Source: Patescibacteria group bacterium (lineage in GTDB: Bacteria; Patescibacteriota; Patescibacteriia; JACRDY01). Taken from it: DNA of 64,000 nucleotides. The notes beneath the pieces were generated by a model. The model saw nothing but the letters and a program-made list of their open reading frames with translations, ran no database searches and was not told the origin of the DNA. Position numbers and translations under genes: made by a program. Location: NCBI GenBank assembly GCA_041650515.1, contig JBAZLA010000002.1:167659-231658 (forward strand). The letters are read 5' to 3'. Of this stretch, positions 4,869-57,746 are shown piece after piece (position 1 is the stretch's first letter; each line of letters opens with the position of its first letter).

Positions 4869-4966
4869 TAAAGTATAGAGTATGAAGTATAGAGTATAGA
4901 GGGAAATTGTGCCCCACGAACGTGGAATTAAGCCCTTTATACTTCATACTCTATACTGCATACTAA
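4869..4966. repeat. Heptad-periodic inverted-repeat hairpin element (GTATAGA/GTATGAA arrays)
   Basis: Left arm aagtatagagtatgaagtatagagtatagag. Right arm tatacttcatactctatactgcatacta. Central ~36 nt has its own small hairpin ccacgaacgtgg. Lies between the uvrB start and the terminator of the HD gene. Confidence 0.75.
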
Positions 4967-17321: not shown

Positions 17322-17478
17322 TGGGGGTTTGGGGTTGGCACGGGGCAGAGCTGAGCTCCAACCGTTTCTGATTACGTCGAGGAGCGAGGCGGGTAAAACC
17401 GTAGGCAGACCAACAATACTTTACCCCTTGCCAACCCAAAAACTTTTTTGATTACTTTTTTGGTTACAAAAAAGTAAT
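17322..17478 (+). repeat. ~160-nt structured intergenic repeat, copy B
   Basis: GGGGGTTTGGGGTTGGCACGGGGC...TTCTGATTACGTCGAGGAGCGAGGCGGG...GCCCCTTGCCAACCCAAAAACTTTTTTGATTACTTTTTTGGTTACAAAAAAGTAAT. Confidence 0.8.
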
Positions 17479-17485
17479 CACATAC

Positions 17486-34996: not shown

Positions 34997-35155
34997 GCGG
35001 GGTTTGGGGTCGGCACGGGGCCGGAGCCGAGCTCCGACTCGTTCTGATTACGCCGAGGAGCGAGGCGAGTTAAACCTTCAGCGGGTAAACAACGCTTTGC
35101 CCCTTGCCGACCCCAAAACTTTTTTATGTTACTTTTTTAGTTATAAAAAAGTAAC
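34997..35155 (+). repeat. ~160-nt structured intergenic repeat, copy C
   Basis: GGGGTTTGGGGTCGGCACGGGGC...TTCTGATTACGCCGAGGAGCGAGGCGAG...GCCCCTTGCCGACCCCAAAACTTTTTTATGTTACTTTTTTAGTTATAAAAAAGTAAC. Compared with copy B, the T-to-C change in the 5' arm is compensated by A-to-G in the 3' arm. Confidence 0.8.
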
Positions 35156-35157
35156 AA

Positions 35158-36375: not shown

Positions 36376-37429
36376 ATAATTTTTGATATTCGCTAATCAT
36401 AGTTTCTAGGCCAAATTTTTCTTTGGTCAAAGCCTGACCTTGCAAACCAAGGCTCTTTCTTAATTCCGGATCTAGAATTAATTGACGCAGAGCCTGAGCT
36501 AAGTTTTTTTCATCTTTGGCTGGTACCAAAATCCCAGTTTGGTTAGGTAAGACCACCTCAGGAATACCACCAACCCGAGTAGCCACCACCGGCAACCCCG
36601 CCAACCCCGCCTCGATTAGAGCAATCGATAATCCTTCTTCTAGCGAAGGTAGGACAAAAATATCCATCTGCTCTAGATAACGTTTGATATCCAACTGCCA
36701 ACCAAAAAACTTGATTCGGTGATCTAGATCAGAGCGCCGCGCTAAGTCTTCGAGCCGGCCACGGTCCGCTCCGTCACCTACCAACCAACATTCCCAATTT
36801 AATTCCCGGATCCGATCTAGGGCCTTAATTAAATAAGTATAACCTTTATCTCGCTCGAGCCGACTAATCGAGCCAATGATCAACCGATTGTGCTGGCGTT
36901 GTTTTTCCAGCTTAGCCATTTTAACACCATTATGGATAACGCTAATCTTGTTTGGTTCGATTTTTTCTACCTGCACCGAATAGCCCTTAGCGGCTTGAGA
37001 GACCGCCACAATCCGCTGAGTTACTTTGGCTAAGCGATATTTCAACCATTTTTTTATCTTGCCTTCTTGATAATTTAAACTATGCTCAGTGGAAATAATA
37101 ATTGGCTTACCGTCGCGTCTCGCTAGCCAAGCGGCCAAGCGGCCATAGGTATCAGCGCCAAATAAATGAGTGTGAATAATATCCGGCTGTTCGGCTTTTA
37201 AATATTGATATAACCGCCATAAAGTACCCAAACCTAATTTGGTCGATTTGCCAATGATTTTAACTTCAATCCCCTGCTGCAGAAGTTTTTCCGCCAAAAT
37301 CCCGCCCCGGACCACCGCCACGACTTTAACTTGGTATTTATCTCTGGGTAAATGAGTGGCCAAATCCACCACCATTTTTTCGGCGCCACCAATACCCAGG
37401 GTCGCTACAATTTGAATTATTTTGATCAT
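36356..37429 (-). CDS. Glycosyltransferase family 4
   Basis: 357 aa. N-terminal VATLGIGGAEKMVVDL, and EGLSIALIEAGLAGLPVVATRVGGIPEV. Overlaps the next GT4 gene by 20 nt (operon). Confidence 0.8.
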   Translation of the reverse strand: MIKIIQIVATLGIGGAEKMVVDLATHLPRDKYQVKVVAVVRGGILAEKLLQQGIEVKIIGKSTKLGLGTLWRLYQYLKAEQPDIIHTHLFGADTYGRLAAWLARRDGKPIIISTEHSLNYQEGKIKKWLKYRLAKVTQRIVAVSQAAKGYSVQVEKIEPNKISVIHNGVKMAKLEKQRQHNRLIIGSISRLERDKGYTYLIKALDRIRELNWECWLVGDGADRGRLEDLARRSDLDHRIKFFGWQLDIKRYLEQMDIFVLPSLEEGLSIALIEAGLAGLPVVATRVGGIPEVVLPNQTGILVPAKDEKNLAQALRQLILDPELRKSLGLQGQALTKEKFGLETMISEYQKLYESFIS

Positions 37430-37434
37430 GAGCT

Positions 37435-37559
37435 AGTGCTTAATACATAGTACATAATACAATAGTAACAAATAACTAACTTCCCCGGTCAACTGCAACC
37501 TTGGAATTCACCGAATAATACTGGAATTAGTAGCTGCGTACTAGGTACTGTGTACTAGG
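37435..37559. repeat. Heptad-periodic inverted-repeat hairpin element (GTACTNN arrays)
   Basis: Left arm atacatagtacataatac. Right arm gcgtactaggtactgtgtactagg. The right arm contains the TAG stop (complement at 37555-37557) of the O-antigen-ligase gene. Confidence 0.65.
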
Positions 37560-38916
37560 TGCTATTTTTAACAAACTTCGTCGCGGCTAAAGCAACGCCT
37601 AACGGAAACCACATTTTGGAAACAAAATAAGACGTCTGAAAAAGCTGAAAAACCATAGCGCCAATAGCGACCACTAAACAAATCAAAACCACGCTCGACC
37701 ATGGGTCCTGTCTAGTCAAGGCAAATCGGTAAGCCCAGACAATCCGCCACAAAACAAAAACCAATAATAAAGTAAAGGTAAACAAACCCAGAACGCCCGA
37801 CTCAGCCAATAGTTTTTGGATCACTCCGTGCGACTCTTGAGTATCGCCAAACTCCAGCATAAAAATCGGATCACTGGCTACCAGCTCAGTAAAACTACCT
37901 GCGCCATTACCTAATAATGGATGTTTGTGCCACGACTGGATGGCAATCGTTGTCAGATACAATCGATGCCAATTAGAGCTCTGGGCAATATAGCTGGTCG
38001 AAAACAAATACATATAAATCAAAGCCGGCGAGAGACAAATAGCGATCAAGACTGTGTAAACCACAATCTTTTGCCACTGGCGCCAGTACTGGATTAGAAA
38101 TAAGATTAATAACTCCACAATCAAGGCAATCCAGCCTGTCCGCGAAAAAGTCGCTAAATTAATCAAAACCATTAATAAGACACCCAAAAATAACCAACGT
38201 TTTCTGTTGCCTTCTCTAGCCTGCCAAATCAAAATTACGCTAAACGGAATAGCGGCGATCAGCACCTCGGCAATCAGATTATGATTCCAGCCTAATGGCC
38301 GGATACCAAAGAGCGCTAACGGCACCGCCCGCCGAAAAAAGCCCTCAGCGCCGACACCAGCTATCAACGACCAGAGACCCATGATCGCCACACTAATACC
38401 CAAGAAATAAAAAATCTTAAAAATGTTTTTGAGGATTTTTTTGTCCTCAATCAGATTGTAAGGCAAGATAACAAACATCAGATAAAAAAATGACAACGGC
38501 CGCAGAATATATTTGATAGTCAAAAGATTGTCAGCCGCATTAATCAATGACAAACTAGAAGCAATAATAAACAAGACAAAATAAAATAAACCCGGGAAAT
38601 TGGCCCAAGATAGCTTTTGTTCACCTTTGAAATGGCGCACTAACGCCTTGATCGCCCAAGCGACAAAAACTACCATTGCTAAGACATCAACATAGGGCAC
38701 GTTTAAGTCTTTATAAATTATTTCCAGATAAGTCAGCGGGTACAAAAAAGTAATCAAATAAAGGCCCAGGGTGGTATAACGGTAAAAAAGGCCAATTGCC
38801 AAAACCAGAATTAGGACAAATAAAATATAGCTGGGTTTTATTATCACAGCTAAAACCGCCAAAATTACCAAAAAAATGGCTAGCAAATAAATTTGGGCCT
38901 GATTTTCTTTGTTCAT
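37555..38916 (-). CDS. O-antigen ligase / Wzy-like polytopic membrane protein
   Basis: 453 aa, roughly 10-12 predicted TM helices, and a large periplasmic loop with H/R-containing motif typical of the O-antigen ligase (Wzy_C) family. Sits in the glycosyltransferase cluster. Confidence 0.62.
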   Translation of the reverse strand: MNKENQAQIYLLAIFLVILAVLAVIIKPSYILFVLILVLAIGLFYRYTTLGLYLITFLYPLTYLEIIYKDLNVPYVDVLAMVVFVAWAIKALVRHFKGEQKLSWANFPGLFYFVLFIIASSLSLINAADNLLTIKYILRPLSFFYLMFVILPYNLIEDKKILKNIFKIFYFLGISVAIMGLWSLIAGVGAEGFFRRAVPLALFGIRPLGWNHNLIAEVLIAAIPFSVILIWQAREGNRKRWLFLGVLLMVLINLATFSRTGWIALIVELLILFLIQYWRQWQKIVVYTVLIAICLSPALIYMYLFSTSYIAQSSNWHRLYLTTIAIQSWHKHPLLGNGAGSFTELVASDPIFMLEFGDTQESHGVIQKLLAESGVLGLFTFTLLLVFVLWRIVWAYRFALTRQDPWSSVVLICLVVAIGAMVFQLFQTSYFVSKMWFPLGVALAATKFVKNST

Positions 38917-39007
38917 TAACTTAATTATATCCTATTTAAGCCAAAAAATAAAGATTAGTCCGTCCTCAGCCCATAGTAATCCGTATGTCATGACGGTGGA
39001 TCACCCA

Positions 39008-39505
39008 TCATCCACGATTATTCCGATCCTTACCCCAATTTTTGGGGTTATTTTTAATATATTGGTAAATTTTTTGATATTCCCATTGGTTACGGATAAC
39101 CCGGTCATGGAACGACCGTTGCCATTGAAAATGGAAATCACGGGAACGAATTTGTTTGGTCACAACATTTTTAAATGAATTAACAATTTTCGATAACAAA
39201 CCATATCGCATTGTAGGGACAGGGCATTGCCCTGTCCCTACGGGATCATCAATCATAATTATTCCGTGTAAATGGTTGGGCATAACGACAAAAATATCAA
39301 TTTGAATATTTAAATAATGTTGGGGTATTTGTTGCCAACATTTTTTGGCGATTTTACCATATTCATTCAATACCATTTTCCCGTTGATAACATCGCCAAA
39401 AACCATTTCCTTATTGTGGGTGCAAATGGTAATGAAATATTGGCCAATTTGGGAATAATCATATCCTAACCAACGGTTTAATTTGCGTTCACGGTATTCA
39501 ACCAT
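39008..39505 (-). CDS. tnpA: IS200/IS605-family Y1 (HUH) transposase, REP-associated tyrosine transposase-like
   Basis: 165 aa. HUH motif MPNHLHGII. C-terminal catalytic Tyr region QWQRSFHDRVIRNQWEYQKIYQYIKNNPKNW matches the Y1_Tnp/RAYT pattern (WQ..YHD..IR....Y.YI..NP). No tnpB partner. A perfect 29-nt palindrome lies inside the CDS at 39213-39241. Confidence 0.8.
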   Translation of the reverse strand: MVEYRERKLNRWLGYDYSQIGQYFITICTHNKEMVFGDVINGKMVLNEYGKIAKKCWQQIPQHYLNIQIDIFVVMPNHLHGIIMIDDPVGTGQCPVPTMRYGLLSKIVNSFKNVVTKQIRSRDFHFQWQRSFHDRVIRNQWEYQKIYQYIKNNPKNWGKDRNNRG

Positions 39506-39555
39506 AGTGCCATGATAAATGGCTGGGGATTAAAAAAATCTAAAATATTTTATCA

Positions 39556-39583
39556 ATAAAAAAACCCGTACGGAGTACGGGAC
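39556..39583 (-). terminator. Terminator downstream of the island Cys-rich lipoprotein gene; also upstream flank of the transposase gene
   Basis: aaaaaaa-cccgtacggagtacggg. The palindrome contains GTAC twice. Confidence 0.6.
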
Positions 39584-39639
39584 CTGCTCCACTGAGGAAG
39601 ATCAGGGTTTGGTAATGGTTCCCTCCTGGGGAAATGGGG

Positions 39640-41280
39640 TCAGGGCGCGTAGTTGGCCCGGACCATGTACTCCTCGGTCCACGCCGGGTTGGAGTAGTAG
39701 TCCTCCAGCCAAGCGTCGGAACATTCATCAAGCGGGAGCACGGTGGGCGGCGTGGTGCAGGACGACGCGTAGTACTCACCCAGACCGGCGGGGCTGGCCT
39801 TCCAACGGAGTTGGCTCCACTGTCCCAAATGGACGACGGTGAAGACTCCATTGATGTCCAACCCGCAGTCTTGGCAGTTGCAGATGAGCTGCGCCGCGAA
39901 GGGGTGCTCGTCGGTGCCGTTGCAGCGGTCACCCGGCGGGGTGCCCGACTCGGTCACCGCCACCAGGAATTCCACCGTCGCGCTGGCCGCGCCGCACGTG
40001 TCGATGAAGTACAGCCGCAGAACGTGAAAGCCGACGGTCAAAGAAGCGGTGCCGTAGTGGTACTCGTAGGGTCCTTCGCCCTGCGACCACGAGGAACAGA
40101 CAACCGTCGGGGGTAACAACGACGGCACATAGGCGCTGCCGTCCACGGCGAACTGCACCCGGCCGCGCTCGGTGACGCTGCTCAGGTTGCAGTCGGCGTC
40201 CAGGTAGTTGACCACAATGTCCAGGTTCGCGCCCTGGGCAAAAATGATCGGGTCGCTGGCCGGCACGCCGTCGACCAAAACCTGGTTGAGCCCGATGATC
40301 GGCGCCGTGTTGTCCTGGCACTCGGTGCTGATGGTGGTACATGAGTCGTTGCCCTCGTCGCACTGTTGCGTCAAGGGGTTGCACTCGTCCGGGCCGACGT
40401 TGACGCACTGGCCAACCTGGCACTCGTCCAAACCGTCGCACCAGTAGCCGTTGTTGCAGGCGCTGCCGTTGATCTTGTCGGTCCAGCCCGTGGGGTTGAG
40501 CCCGGGCTGGCACTCTTCGCACTGATTCAGGGGGTTGTCGTCCCCGGTCTGGTAGACGTACCCGCTGATCGTGCACTCGGTGGGCACAGGGATCAGATCG
40601 CATTCGTCGTTGCTTTCGTCACACACCTCGGTGATCGGATCGCACTCGTCGGGACCCACGTTGGCGCAGACGCCGGCCTGGCACTCGTCCAAACCGTCGC
40701 ACCAGTAACCGTTGTCACAAACCGCACCGTTGGGACGGACGGTCCAGCCCGTGGGGTTGAGCCCGGGCTGACATTCTTCGCAGGGATTCGCGGGGTTGAT
40801 GGCGCCGCTCTCGTAGTGATAGCCGTTGATGATGCATTCGTTGTCGTCGTCATCGTCGTCATCGTCACCCAACGGATCGCATTCATCCGCGGACTCGTTG
40901 CAAACCTCCGTGAGGGGGCTGCACTCGTCCGGCCCGACGTTCACGCAGTCGCCGGCCTGGCACTCGTCCGGGCCGTCACACCAATAGCCGTTGCTGCAAA
41001 CCGCACCGTTGGGACGGACGGTCCAGCCCGTGGAGTCGAGCCCGGGCTGACATTCTTCACAGGAATTCGCGGGGTTGATGGCGCCGCTCTCGTAGTGATA
41101 GCCGTTGATGATGCATTCGTTGTCGTCGTCATCATCCAGGGAGATGTCATCATCGGTGTCGCCACCGTTGTCGTCGTCATCGCCGCCGCCGTACTCGCAG
41201 GCGACAACGAAGCCGACAATCAGGAAAAAGAACAAGGCGACCAACAGTCCGTTGGTCAGGGGGGTTCTCGTCGTCTTCAT
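39640..41280 (-). CDS. Secreted Cys-rich lipoprotein with three tandem ~90-aa Cys-rich modules and poly-Asp linkers (GC-rich island)
   Basis: The ORF is tracked to 41307, but the RBS 'ggagg' lies 7 nt before the ATG at 41280 (MKTTRTPLTNGLLVALFFFLIVGFVVAC = signal plus lipobox). Repeats: NECIINGYHYESGAINPAN.CEECQPGL..TGWTVRPNGAVC.NGYWCDG.DECQAG.C.NVGPDEC. Poly-D runs DDDDNGGDTDDD and DDDDDDDD. The region is much more GC-rich than the rest of the window. Confidence 0.6.
   Translation of the reverse strand: MKTTRTPLTNGLLVALFFFLIVGFVVACEYGGGDDDDNGGDTDDDISLDDDDDNECIINGYHYESGAINPANSCEECQPGLDSTGWTVRPNGAVCSNGYWCDGPDECQAGDCVNVGPDECSPLTEVCNESADECDPLGDDDDDDDDNECIINGYHYESGAINPANPCEECQPGLNPTGWTVRPNGAVCDNGYWCDGLDECQAGVCANVGPDECDPITEVCDESNDECDLIPVPTECTISGYVYQTGDDNPLNQCEECQPGLNPTGWTDKINGSACNNGYWCDGLDECQVGQCVNVGPDECNPLTQQCDEGNDSCTTISTECQDNTAPIIGLNQVLVDGVPASDPIIFAQGANLDIVVNYLDADCNLSSVTERGRVQFAVDGSAYVPSLLPPTVVCSSWSQGEGPYEYHYGTASLTVGFHVLRLYFIDTCGAASATVEFLVAVTESGTPPGDRCNGTDEHPFAAQLICNCQDCGLDINGVFTVVHLGQWSQLRWKASPAGLGEYYASSCTTPPTVLPLDECSDAWLEDYYSNPAWTEEYMVRANYAP
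40300..41130. repeat. Tandem ~280-bp DNA repeats (3 copies; the two at higher coordinates are near-identical) inside the Cys-rich lipoprotein gene
   Basis: Blocks such as cgcggggttgatggcgccgctctcgtagtgatagccgttgatgatgcattcgttgtcgtcgtcatc occur at 40791 and 41071. accgttgggacggacggtccagcccgtgg occurs at 40726 and 41006. The period is 280 bp. Confidence 0.8.
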
Positions 41281-41337
41281 TTCGAAACCTCCGTTTGCAG
41301 AAGACATTACTCACTTCGTTTCTGTCGCTTCGGTGTT

Positions 41338-42888
41338 TTACCAGGAAATTACGATTCGTCCCGCGCCACCGAAATAGCGGGATTCATCGGTTACCAGGGG
41401 GTTATCAAAGTCGGGCGACCATTGTCGCCAGCCAAAGGCCGGTCCGAGCATCAGCCGAATCGGGTGTTGCCCGAAGAGCCAGTACTCATAACCGATACCC
41501 AGGCTGACAAATTGGTCAAGACCATACGGTCCGCCCTGACTGCCCAGACTCTCCGAGATGGCGTTGCCGCTCACCTCAAAGGCCAGATAGTGGGACGGGG
41601 TAATGGCCCAGGCCGCGCCAAGATGGCCGCTCCCAATGAGGGAGTTGTGATAGCCATACCCGACGTAGCCACCGACCCGAAGCACGTTGGGTTGTCCGGC
41701 GATGGTGAAATCGCCCTCAACCTCGAGAACGCCGAAACCGCTTGCGTGTTGCGCATTCGCGGTAACGACACCTCCAGCACCAACGTGCAGAAATTTCGGC
41801 CAAGACACAGTAACCGGAACAGGAACAAGAACAGGAACTTTTCCCGAGGGACGTTGCGTCCGCTCGGCTGCGAGTCGCTGACCCGATTCTGCCGTGTTAA
41901 GGGCAGCTTGGGCCCGGGCTCGCAGATCCGCAAAGTCATCCCCGGTGTAGATCCGGAGGAAGGCTTGGCCTCGGTCTTGAACCTTGGCCCAGTCTTTTGA
42001 CTTTACTGCGGCTTCAATCTCTTCGACCTCCTCTTCCGCCAGTTGGCGGTTGACTTGCCCCACCATCTCAGGCAGGGTGCCCCTGGTGATCACCAGGGCG
42101 GTGACCGCCGTAGGCGGAGTGAGGTCAGGCGGGGTAGTGGTGGGTTCTTCTGTCTCAGACGGCAGATTAGGCTCAGCCTGCGCCAAGACCCTTTCCGACC
42201 ACCGAGACGTCTCTGGCTCTGGGGCGTTAGTCACCCGGTAGCGCTCACCTGGCGGCGGCGCCGACACGGTGTACTCCCGATAGCCCCCTTGGCCGTAGAC
42301 AAGTTGGAACTCATCATTAAGCCAGTGAACTGCCGGGGTTGTACTAACGTCCCAGATCTCCACCCAAACTTCTTCTTCCAGCACATCGCTGCCCAAGGTG
42401 AGCATAATGGCCTCACCCTTGTACGGATATTCGGTCCACTGACCGTCCACCAGTACGCGGGCAATGATCCGACCGTCACGTGGTGTCTCCTTAAACCGCA
42501 GCTCTAACCGGTCGGAATTGGGCGGCGGGGTAAAGGTTCTGATGCACGGGCCGGCATCAATCGGTATTTCCGGCCCGTCATATCCGGCAGATTGCACCCG
42601 GATGGCCTCAGCCACGCCCAAATACCCGTAGAGCGTGACCTCCGCGACTTCGGTTACCGGTTTAGCCAGGATATGATGCCAGACCTGGTACTTGTACGTA
42701 CCGGCCGTGACTGTCGCTTTCCAGGGATGGTTGCTGTCAAATGGATGGCTCTCGGGATCCCTATTTCCCGGTCGCCACAACCTCAGCTCATACACGCCGT
42801 CAGGGCAGATTGCGCTGGTGGCGCATTGAATCCCGATCACGGGCGGTTTGAGTTTCGGTGGTGAACCGCGAGCAACCGCTTCCTCCAC
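41338..42888 (-). CDS. Putative outer-membrane beta-barrel-like protein (GC-rich island); start uncertain
   Basis: 516 aa as tracked, but the start is actually GTG-encoded. An in-frame upstream extension encodes KTKGKFLIAVFLLLIFGSV (signal peptide) with an AGGAGG RBS near 42945, so the true start is probably non-canonical and upstream. The C-terminal ~180 aa are rich in alternating G/Y/aromatic beta-strand residues and end in ...GRIVISW (OMP-like C-terminus). Confidence 0.5.
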   Translation of the reverse strand: MEEAVARGSPPKLKPPVIGIQCATSAICPDGVYELRLWRPGNRDPESHPFDSNHPWKATVTAGTYKYQVWHHILAKPVTEVAEVTLYGYLGVAEAIRVQSAGYDGPEIPIDAGPCIRTFTPPPNSDRLELRFKETPRDGRIIARVLVDGQWTEYPYKGEAIMLTLGSDVLEEEVWVEIWDVSTTPAVHWLNDEFQLVYGQGGYREYTVSAPPPGERYRVTNAPEPETSRWSERVLAQAEPNLPSETEEPTTTPPDLTPPTAVTALVITRGTLPEMVGQVNRQLAEEEVEEIEAAVKSKDWAKVQDRGQAFLRIYTGDDFADLRARAQAALNTAESGQRLAAERTQRPSGKVPVLVPVPVTVSWPKFLHVGAGGVVTANAQHASGFGVLEVEGDFTIAGQPNVLRVGGYVGYGYHNSLIGSGHLGAAWAITPSHYLAFEVSGNAISESLGSQGGPYGLDQFVSLGIGYEYWLFGQHPIRLMLGPAFGWRQWSPDFDNPLVTDESRYFGGAGRIVISW

Positions 42889-42958
42889 TGACCCGAAGAT
42901 CAGCAGGAGGAAGACGGCTATCAGGAACTTTCCTTTGGTCTTCGTGACTTCCTCCTTT

Positions 42959-44014
42959 CTAGAAGCGGTAACCGACCCGGAACATCACCCCGTAGGGGAT
43001 GGTGACGCGCGTAACGTCTTCCTGGGCCGGGCTCTTGGACTCGAACTGGAGTCCGCAGTTGGGGCCAACACCCCAGATCAGCCGATCGTCGAAGTGACGG
43101 CCAACCAGGCCGGCGTTAAGGATCGGAAACCCCCAGCGATCGGTATGGTTGCCGTGCTCGACTTGGAACCACCGCGAGGTGATCCCAGCTTCGAAACCGG
43201 CCCAGCTCTCGCCGAAAATACGGTACCCGCCACCGACCTCGGTGTCGAGACCCGCATGTTGGTTGGGGCCCAACCCGCCGTGGAAGAAGAACTCGTGCCT
43301 TCCCCACAGCAGGTCAAACCCGCCTTCGGCGATGAAGTAGGAGTAATTGCCGTTGCTGTCCATGTAGGTTTGGTAACCCGCGTACAGCAGAGCGCTCACC
43401 CCGTCGCCGCCGCTCGCACCCGCAGCACCCGGTCTGGCGGTCGGCATGAAGATCCGCGAGATGATGCCTTGCGGGCTATCCCGGTTCTCCACCCGAACTT
43501 CTTCATCCGGATCAACCGGTTCGATCTCAACGTCCGCAATCCCGCGGCCACGCTCACCCGGAGCGCCAGCCGCACCGCTGGTCGGCGGTTTGCGAACATA
43601 AATCCGAACCACCCGGTTTTTGTTGCGGAAGTTCCCGTCGGCATCGCACAAAGTTTGTGCCTCGGGGAGACCAGCCTCAATCTCAACTCGCTTTACCTCA
43701 GTTGCCCGCAGGTGAGCGAGTTGGCCGTTGCCGGTGAAGCCGCTGGTTTCGCCGTGGTAATCGGCGTAACCAGTAAACTTCACTTCCCAGCCCGGGTAGT
43801 CGGACCTAATCTTGGCGGCGACCGCCTTCAGCTTATCCATCTGTGCCTGACGCACATTGGACGGAAAAGCTTCCGGCAATCGCCACTCGTTGATCGTAAA
43901 ATCGGCGGTGGCGTGGATCAGGATCCACCCATCGCCGGCCTCTGCCGTTTTGGCACTTGCCAGGATGGCGAGCGCCACGATGGACAATGCCACCGCCAAC
44001 AGGATTCTTCGCAC
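42959..44014 (-). CDS. OmpA/MotB-like peptidoglycan-binding domain protein with C-terminal beta-barrel-like region (GC-rich island)
   Basis: 351 aa. Signal peptide MRRILLAVALSIVALAILASAKTAEA. OmpA_C-like motif FTGYADYHGETSGFTGNGQLAHLRATEV...NRVVRIYV. The C-terminus ...MFRVGYRF ends in Phe like diderm outer-membrane proteins. Confidence 0.6.
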   Translation of the reverse strand: MRRILLAVALSIVALAILASAKTAEAGDGWILIHATADFTINEWRLPEAFPSNVRQAQMDKLKAVAAKIRSDYPGWEVKFTGYADYHGETSGFTGNGQLAHLRATEVKRVEIEAGLPEAQTLCDADGNFRNKNRVVRIYVRKPPTSGAAGAPGERGRGIADVEIEPVDPDEEVRVENRDSPQGIISRIFMPTARPGAAGASGGDGVSALLYAGYQTYMDSNGNYSYFIAEGGFDLLWGRHEFFFHGGLGPNQHAGLDTEVGGGYRIFGESWAGFEAGITSRWFQVEHGNHTDRWGFPILNAGLVGRHFDDRLIWGVGPNCGLQFESKSPAQEDVTRVTIPYGVMFRVGYRF

Positions 44015-44078
44015 AATTGCCTCCTTCCTACGTCTTTTGCGTAGGTATCAGAAAGGTTGAATCACCGTTTTAAGACTC

Positions 44079-44127
44079 ATCTAGCACTAACTTCTGCCAA
44101 ATAACTTATCAAACAAAAGTTAGTGCT
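44079..44127. repeat. 49-nt hairpin with conserved 27-nt loop, copy 1 (boundary of GC-rich island)
   Basis: ctagcactaac-ttctgccaaataacttatcaaacaaaa-gttagtgctag. Perfect 11-bp stem. Confidence 0.65.
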
Positions 44128-57586: not shown

Positions 57587-57746
57587 CGGGGGCTTGGGGG
57601 CAAGCTAGGCGCTAAGTCCCGCCCCGGCCTTTTCTGATTACGCCGAGAGGCGGGACGGATAAGGCAAACCGTTGACTAACAATGAATTGCGCCTAGCTTG
57701 CCCCCAAAACTTTTTTTGATTACTTTTTTAGTTATAAAAAAGTAAT
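57587..57746 (+). repeat. ~160-nt structured intergenic repeat, copy D
   Basis: GGGGGCTTGGGGGCAAGCTAGGCGC...GTCCCGCCCCGGCCTTTTCTGATTACGCCGAGAGGCGGGAC...GCGCCTAGCTTGCCCCCAAAACTTTTTTTGATTACTTTTTTAGTTATAAAAAAGTAAT. Perfect 17-bp closing helix. Confidence 0.85.

Follow-up and report, generated by a model that had tools for sequence, protein, structure and literature searches.

Within the 64-kb window (i.e., the whole stretch of Patescibacteria DNA analysed here), a perfect 29-nt palindrome lies in frame inside a RAYT-like gene; it is very probably a double-foot REP seated in the loop-encoding variable region of a tnpA_REP gene of the subclass 2.4 type and a putative substrate of the cognate enzyme. 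Since the palindrome, the protein motifs, and the loop site fit subclass 2.4, the locus represents a further example of the arrangement described in 2018, and this documented REP-in-RAYT arrangement accounts for the unusual GC-rich palindrome as well as for the low-complexity VGTGQCPVPT peptide that it encodes. Taken alone, this would be routine annotation; comparison with homologs makes two modest additions, i.e., (i) that the REP-in-RAYT arrangement extends to Patescibacteria, with the internal copy being the sole one in 64 kb, and (ii) that the internal REP is held far tighter at the nucleotide level than the surrounding gene. The use of both stop-free reading frames, along with Watson-Crick-only pairing, sharpens the question of why subclass 2.4 keeps a substrate in its own gene.

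Quentin et al. (2018; PMC6006769), whose Table 1 treats subclass 2.4 as equivalent to Group 4 in the RAYT classification by Bertels et al. (2017), characterise the subclass by NH[IFV]H, WQ, and YIxNNP motifs, a protein whose median length is 194 aa, highly variable inserted sequence between β3 and αC, and "double foot" REPs with a 5' GT[AG]G and a 3' C[TC]AC. [quoted passage not shown] Group 4 genes are common in Cyanobacteria, Chlorobia, and Caldilineae, with their flanking 16-mers only modestly repeated (Bertels et al. 2017). A literature search for later work on in-gene REP function in subclass 2.4 returned none.

A perfect double-foot palindrome in the window

A sequence-only reading of this DNA had reported a perfect GC-rich palindrome at 39213-39241, and its sequence (GTAGGGACAGGGCATTGCCCTGTCCCTAC), coordinates, and arms are borne out. 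The two 14-bp arms (GTAGGGACAGGGCA at 39213-39226 and TGCCCTGTCCCTAC at 39228-39241) are 100% complementary around a single T, which reads as A on the coding (minus) strand. In its footed form (GTAG-GGACAGGGCA-T-TGCCCTGTCC-CTAC), the element pairs at 14 of 14 positions and carries the 5' GT[AG]G and 3' C[TC]AC feet of the double-foot type. Feature coordinates are collected in Table 1.

The palindrome (GTAGGGACAGGGCANTGCCCTGTCCCTAC) is single in the window, even with up to 3 mismatches allowed, and 100 shuffles yielded no match to the 29-mer at this same tolerance. Perfect hairpins with arms of at least 14 bp never arose when the window was simulated 200 times with a first-order Markov model, and a GTAG...CTAC double-foot scan returned 1 match in the window versus 0.24 in shuffles; a chance origin is thus ruled out by shuffles and simulation alike. 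Besides 39213-39241, no second GTAGGG...CCCTAC hairpin was found across the window, the remaining long perfect hairpins of which are mostly AT-rich, terminator-like stems. The GC content of the palindrome is 62%, versus 33-40% for the host gene. Its predicted fold reaches -16.3 kcal/mol as single-stranded DNA (z -5.6) and -27.1 kcal/mol as RNA of the sense transcript (z -4.7). A promoter inside the palindrome was also considered and rejected, with just a 9/12 consensus match detected, i.e., at chance frequency.

Table 1. Features of the window (positions are those of the 64-kb stretch).
Feature	Position	Strand	Remarks
tnpA_REP / RAYT-like gene	39008..39505	minus	165 aa; subclass 2.4 (Group 4) type
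Tyr motif Y149-I-K-N-N-P154 (YIxNNP)	39044..39061	minus	Y149 invariant
Q127-W128-Q129 codons	39116..39124	minus	W128-Q129 is the W-Q motif of class 2 TnpA_Y1
Loop codons, residues 86-102	39200..39250	minus	between HUH strand (E78-85) and helix 103-120
REP-encoded decapeptide V89-T98	39212-39241	minus	within loop 86-102
Double-foot REP	39213..39241	.	both strands read alike bar the central base
HUH motif H78-L79-H80 (within MPNHLHGI)	39266..39274	minus	P76, H78, and H80 invariant in 66 sequences
AT-rich hairpin family members	17449-17480, 35127-35156, 57719-57746		

The host gene and its predicted product

Together with base 39212, the palindrome supplies ten codons (V89-G-T-G-Q-C-P-V-P-T98) of an uninterrupted 165-aa ORF, the product of which has the same sequence as P0001, recorded as "MAG: transposase [Patescibacteria group bacterium]". 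As the sequence-only reading had proposed, the palindrome falls between the HUH motif and the catalytic-type Tyr of a RAYT-type HUH/Y1 gene, with H78-H80 and Y149 located on either side. Among aligned relatives, W128 and Y149 are invariant, while Q129, I150, and N153 are conserved in at least 90% of sequences. Scores against curated family models fall short of their cut-offs, both for NCBIfam NF047646 REP_Tyr_transpos (54.3 bits versus 80) and for Pfam PF01797 Y1_Tnp (17.7 bits versus 23); these two models are centred on other subclasses, and a precomputed PF01797 match is present in many of the homologs.

Comparison of a homolog profile against solved structures gave a sole match, to E. coli TnpA_REP (4ER8, E 5.4e-7). 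The AlphaFold model of the 165-aa protein (mean pLDDT 88, pTM 0.83) shows an HUH-Y1 fold: all 30 of the Foldseek matches at E <= 0.001 were IS200/IS605-type transposases or TnpA_REP, and the best superposition was again with 4ER8 (TM 0.61/0.61, rmsd 4.0 over 163 columns). Residues 92-98 form the only internal low-confidence stretch of the model (pLDDT <50), and their placement within loop 86-102 suggests that the palindrome encodes a disordered surface loop.

At the sequence level, the gene displays the features of subclass 2.4, with L as the middle HUH residue. Shared traits include (i) the HuH, WQ, and YIxNNP motifs, (ii) a variable insertion between β3 and αC, (iii) a long perfect REP with both feet, read in frame as part of a peripheral loop that separates HuH from Y, and (iv) a scattered distribution over many phyla. 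Differences from the published description are an HUH motif that reads NHLH where NH[IFV]H is listed, a length of 165 aa as opposed to the 194-aa median, and a Patescibacteria (CPR) MAG as host, a group that is not named in the text of that paper. The middle L recurs in many homologs that align end to end. The gene can be labelled as encoding a TnpA_REP of subclass 2.4, as opposed to a generic "transposase".

Recurrence of the palindrome in one loop

Protein relatives numbered 203, from which an alignment of 66 sequences was built; this was conserved throughout, bar a stretch directly following the HUH strand that was variable in both length and sequence. From genomes, 80 homologous loci were retrieved; 69 genes could be parsed, and in these the HUH-to-WQ stretch of DNA was analysed. 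Host phyla comprised Chloroflexota, Bacteroidota, Cyanobacteria, Nitrospirota, Chlorobiaceae, Pseudomonadota, and CPR, amongst others. A GTAG/CTAC-footed palindrome was present in the corresponding loop of 35 of the 69 parsed genes, and the in-gene copy was confined to this one loop, being absent elsewhere in the coding sequence. Across homologs, the window, and six metagenome genes, palindromes were 28 nt long in 23 cases and 29 nt long in 16, with a median offset of 54 nt past the start of xPNHxH.

The segment is an insertion relative to the shortest family members, a point that the earlier reading had suggested checking by family alignment: the HUH-to-WQ distance is 53 aa in the window protein compared to 45-47 aa in palindrome-free homologs (e.g., L073, L071, L065, and L018). 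That reading had also envisaged a nested hairpin insertion with adjacent duplication. Its insertion component essentially holds, with the inserted DNA being a double-foot REP, which is the minimal non-autonomous element of this enzyme family (Quentin et al. 2018); the duplication component does not, as none is detectable in the window and tandem half-repeats beside the hairpin are restricted to some homologs (e.g., L095). An intact palindrome was absent from 34 of the 69 genes, all of which retain HUH and WQ and nearly all of which retain the Tyr motif, and many homologs without an intact copy contain decayed palindrome remnants.

Two further observations concern the architecture of the loop. 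Tandem half or whole hairpin copies are often present therein (L095, L027, L042, L050, L051, L058, L064, L002, and L005), encoding repeats such as QCPVPT x3 in L095, GPCAVPK x4 in L027, and VGEGLKPSPT x2 in L058, which suggests slippage or repeated insertion at the site. Dyad symmetry also reaches 3-8 bp past the GTAG/CTAC feet in several loci (L029, L031, L043, L050, L052, L067, and L002), giving arms of up to 22 bp in which the sequence of the extension is locus specific; this fits an origin as an inverted REP dimer or a palindrome extension.

Constraint on nucleotides as opposed to peptide

The inner sequence of the palindrome varies widely yet remains complementary (e.g., GTAGGGGCGGTTCGCGAACCGCCCCTAC, GTAGAGACGTTGCATGCAACGTCTCTAC, and GTAGGGACAGGTCGCGACCTGTCCCTAC). 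For an alignment of 30 palindromes, 98.3% of cells were paired, 9 of the 14 stem pairs had changed on both sides, and no stem pair varied on one side only; since these sequences were picked for being palindromic, the statistics describe the set and are no test of it. Invariant positions were G1-T2-A3 and C26-T27-A28-C29 in the feet. Over 48 hairpins, pairing amounted to 644 Watson-Crick, 1 G.T, 8 A.C, and 9 other combinations. A double-stranded operator for a dimeric regulator could be envisaged given that perfect dyad symmetry is typical of operators; however, an inner sequence that is free to vary so long as it stays complementary follows hairpin logic and not that of sequence-specific double-stranded DNA recognition. 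We consider it very improbable that the palindrome is either such an operator or a product of chance or misassembly, with the latter two being contradicted by the simulations, the agreement of Logan SRR8542065, and the presence of the exact 29-mer in 22 other contigs.

Reading frame provides a separate view. Frame 0 (GTA GGG, "VG...") is used in 30 genes and frame 1 (xGT AGG, "xRG...") in 12, with no case among the homologous genes of frame 2, which would yield a TAG stop. An identical palindrome (GTAGGGGCACGGCATGCCGTGCCCCTAC) thus yields RGTACRAPT in two genes (L024 and L037) but VGARHAVPL in a third (L034). Identity of 28-mers at 100% was found between diverged genes (L006/L069, L022/L043, and L024/L034/L037) that otherwise share 56-65% aa identity, 61-68% nt identity, and 38-51% identity at third positions. 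Use of two frames, complementary changes, and 28-mers that outlast gene divergence together indicate, from sequence comparison, that the constraint falls on DNA complementarity and the feet, as opposed to the peptide. The three genes with the identical 28-nt GTAGGGGCACGGCATGCCGTGCCCCTAC (L024, L034, and L037) come from Dehalococcoidia, Anaerolineales, and Chlorobiaceae genomes, with proteins that are ~56% identical and two frames in use.

These same data bear on whether VGTGQCPVPT is a conserved functional peptide for which palindromy is incidental. Close homologs do have VGTEQCSVPT- or VGTGQCPVRT-type peptides in common at the V89-T98 position of the window protein. These variants are, however, also palindromic at the DNA level, their G/P to E/S changes being paired; a single palindrome can be read in two frames to give unrelated peptides; and the segment is missing from many homologs and predicted to be disordered. 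Conservation of the segment in homologs lacking a palindrome, which the sequence-only reading had named as grounds for abandoning its proposal, was not encountered; VGTxQCxVPT in close homologs is always accompanied by the nucleotide palindrome, and more distant homologs keep the palindrome with another sequence or reading frame. The frame data effectively refute a conserved peptide motif, which we judge to have next to no likelihood.

Structure at the mRNA level is another alternative, whereby a transcript hairpin (as a translational roadblock, RNase III site, or stabiliser) would set the level of the enzyme. The predicted sense-transcript hairpin is very stable, and REPs elsewhere affect mRNA fate (introductions of Di Nocera et al. 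2013 and Corneloup et al. 2021). Yet only 1 G.T pair stands against the 644 Watson-Crick pairs, no stem pair varies on one side only, and A.C outnumbers G.T on the sense strand, opposite to the prediction for selection on RNA. A generic RNA hairpin would also require neither conserved GTAG/CTAC feet nor fixed 14-bp arms, and the identical sequence also occurs outside of genes. We thus regard an mRNA-level role as improbable.

The two feet are not equivalent. On the sense strand, the 3' CTAC is invariant (30/30), while the 5' GTAG varies at position 4, reading GTAA in four loci and GTAC in one (L003, L007, L036, L047, and L057); consequently, a canonical 5' GTAG is always kept on the antisense strand only. 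In 5 of 5 cases of single-foot loss, it is the antisense-strand GTAG that survives, and sense-strand mismatches comprise 8 A.C versus 1 G.T.

REP copies beside and away from RAYT genes

The same or a near-identical palindrome is found just upstream and/or downstream of the gene in eight homologous loci (L037, L057, L078, L055, L031, L072, L006, and L022), including copies at 4919, 5278, and 5584 in L037, while L040 has flanking copies only. Approximately 20 loci resemble the window in having a perfect in-gene palindrome without a flanking copy in the DNA examined. Around the window gene, neither a GTAG...CTAC hairpin nor the 29-mer with up to 3 mismatches was found as a flanking REP in 64 kb, a difference from REPtrons, in which flanking REPs lie within ~1 kb. 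Further REP copies thus number 0 in the 64 kb of a 243.5-kb contig that the window covers, a span in which multiplicity in the host genome is not seen.

With any central base permitted, the exact 29-mer of the window was recovered from 22 metagenome contigs, six of which carry it in apparently intact RAYT-like genes and three or four in truncated RAYT fragments. In ~12-13 of these contigs (roughly ten distinct loci), which derive from other organisms, the 29-mer is outside any RAYT-like ORF; such copies are mostly outside ORFs altogether, typically 2-80 nt from ORF ends, with some overlapping or within an ORF. Palindrome type follows enzyme lineage (Mantel r 0.33; 0 of 5000 permutations as high), as expected under enzyme-hairpin co-evolution.

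In the RAYT fragments (L081, L083, L085, and L099), similarity to intact genes stops close to the REP. L081 and L083 consist of the 3' half only, while L085 and L099 retain a ~30-aa remnant and have a second double-foot REP (GTAGGGAACAGGCATGCCTGTTCCCTAC) ~137 nt off. Ends of this kind may reflect REP-associated rearrangement or assembly breaks. At 1684-1712 of L094, the exact palindrome of the window, with G at its centre, falls within an ORF of 603 aa that does not resemble RAYT; this may be an intragenic REP carried in frame by a different gene.

A putative substrate copy: probably a tolerated passenger, possibly a selected cis element

Binding of single-stranded REPs, with GTAG-dependent cleavage and strand transfer, is known only for the E. 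coli, S. maltophilia, and Marinomonas enzymes, which belong to Groups 2 and 3. E. coli TnpA_REP binds a folded single-stranded REP, for which it needs the GTAG and the hairpin, and it cleaves single-stranded DNA at CT on either the 5' or the 3' side of the REP; enzymes of Groups 2 and 3 have co-evolved with their REPs (Corneloup et al. 2021). By analogy, we infer that the hairpin in the window may be a substrate of the encoded enzyme, which makes plausible the enzyme-bound site that the sequence-only reading had offered as one option. In single-stranded DNA (e.g., the lagging-strand template), either strand would form a 14-bp stem carrying GTAG as its 5' foot. As extrapolated from E. coli TnpA_REP biochemistry, and from Groups 2 and 3 in general to subclass 2.4, the encoded enzyme would then bind the folded REP, cleave the adjoining DNA, and rejoin it.

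Presence of the REP inside the gene would follow if a copy had entered a permissive loop, for which the gene of the enzyme itself would be the nearest target. The copy would persist so long as it lay in any stop-free frame, all of which would be tolerated with the peptide as a passenger, and its sequence would be kept by cognate-enzyme recognition and/or gene conversion, as for the uniformity of REP families. With no second copy in 64 kb, homogenisation by other copies is not demonstrable here. A tolerated passenger is our preferred reading of the in-gene location because half of the homologs have lost or eroded the REP and because the loop gathers tandem partial copies.

The fixed loop position and perfect conservation without flanking copies would also fit a selected cis function. 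In one variant, the in-gene REP would act as a private "seed", moving wherever the gene moves and able to found a REP population after transfer; in another, the enzyme would sense, limit, or inactivate its own gene by binding or cleaving the single-stranded DNA thereof. Retention of the in-gene REP because it is useful to the system is consistent with its restriction to one loop of the coding sequence, its perfection in the ~20 loci (and the window) for which no flanking copy was seen in the DNA examined, and its 100% conservation between genes with third codon positions near saturation. The foot asymmetry (antisense GTAG kept 5/5, sense-strand A.C:G.T of 8:1) and the three or four truncated fragments that break beside the REP (L081, L083, and L085/L099) may point in the same direction. 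Against this, the lack of an intact palindrome in 34 of 69 homologs, many with decayed remnants, marks the element as dispensable and erodible; tandem duplication of half or all of it makes the number of copies per loop differ, as would be expected of unstable passenger DNA; and the strand-asymmetry and truncation counts are very small. We regard a selected cis element as the less likely reading.

More specifically, the in-gene REP might serve subclass 2.4 enzymes as a "private substrate" that selection maintains at a fixed position, a proposal that we hold to be rather unlikely. If true, any inheritance or transfer of the gene would be certain to bring one REP copy along, from which a new population could be seeded or through which the enzyme could act on its own gene. 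The antisense would then be the functional strand, its GTAG foot being always retained, and the window would represent a minimal state, i.e., a small CPR genome with the enzyme and just one REP, internal to its gene.

Relationship to known REP and hairpin systems

The E. coli REPtron (4ER8; subclass 2.2, Group 2; REP/BIME) resembles the system described here in its HUH/Y1 fold (TM 0.61), GTAG-tagged hairpin substrate, and single-copy, domesticated-transposase behaviour. E. coli REPs are, however, extragenic and single-footed with an essential bulge, and the E. coli gene has only ~10 residues where the family of the window has its REP-bearing loop; moreover, of the two enzymes, activity has been demonstrated only for E. 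coli TnpA_REP. TnpA proteins of IS200/IS605 (IS608 and ISDra2) have the same fold, with the top Foldseek E-values, and recognise subterminal DNA hairpins on single-stranded DNA. These nonetheless belong to true insertion sequences, present in multiple copies, with hairpins at the element ends and none inside tnpA; their enzymes are dimeric and possess a Y...Q motif instead of Y...NP.

GTAG REPs inside other genes have been catalogued (Di Nocera et al. 2013). Such intragenic REPs, as well as Rickettsia palindromic elements (RPE), are similar in that a short in-frame palindrome is tolerated in a flexible part of a protein. In those cases, the element sits at varying positions in genes that have no connection to it (among them uvrA/B, dnaE, and recB), whereas in the window the host gene is that of the putative enzyme of the element itself, with a position that is fixed across the subclass.

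Surroundings of the gene

Related hairpins had been suggested for the flanks of the gene by the sequence-only reading (39556-39583 and near 38980), but neither has GTAG/CTAC feet. Within the former, 39565-39581 is a minus-strand terminator-like stem (CCCGTAC-TCC-GTACGGG followed by a T-run) that lies between a GC-rich ORF and the RAYT start, following the upstream gene; it was thus rejected as a flank REP. The latter is a weak 6-bp stem and was likewise rejected as a related element.

A 4.5-kb GC-rich island (39600-44080; 54-66% GC versus 32-44% on either side) adjoins the 5' side of the RAYT gene. Logan SRR8542065, an independent assembly, matches window positions 37008-40445 with 0 mismatches, ruling out an assembly artefact or chimera at the adjacent island, and reproduces the RAYT-side junction exactly. 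The island contains three minus-strand ORFs (39640..41307, 41338..42888, and 42959..44014), for which a Pfam search detected nothing bar a sub-threshold OmpA match. The first of these encodes a 555-aa product with Cys-rich repeats (GYWCDGxDECQAGxCxNVGPDEC) and poly-Asp linkers. The island possibly represents horizontally acquired surface-protein genes.

Elsewhere in the window, an AT-rich family of perfect hairpins (TTACTTTTTT-(A/G)GTTA-(C/T)AAAAAAGTAA) with 12-14-bp arms occurs three times (Table 1), and is probably a shared terminator or regulatory motif.
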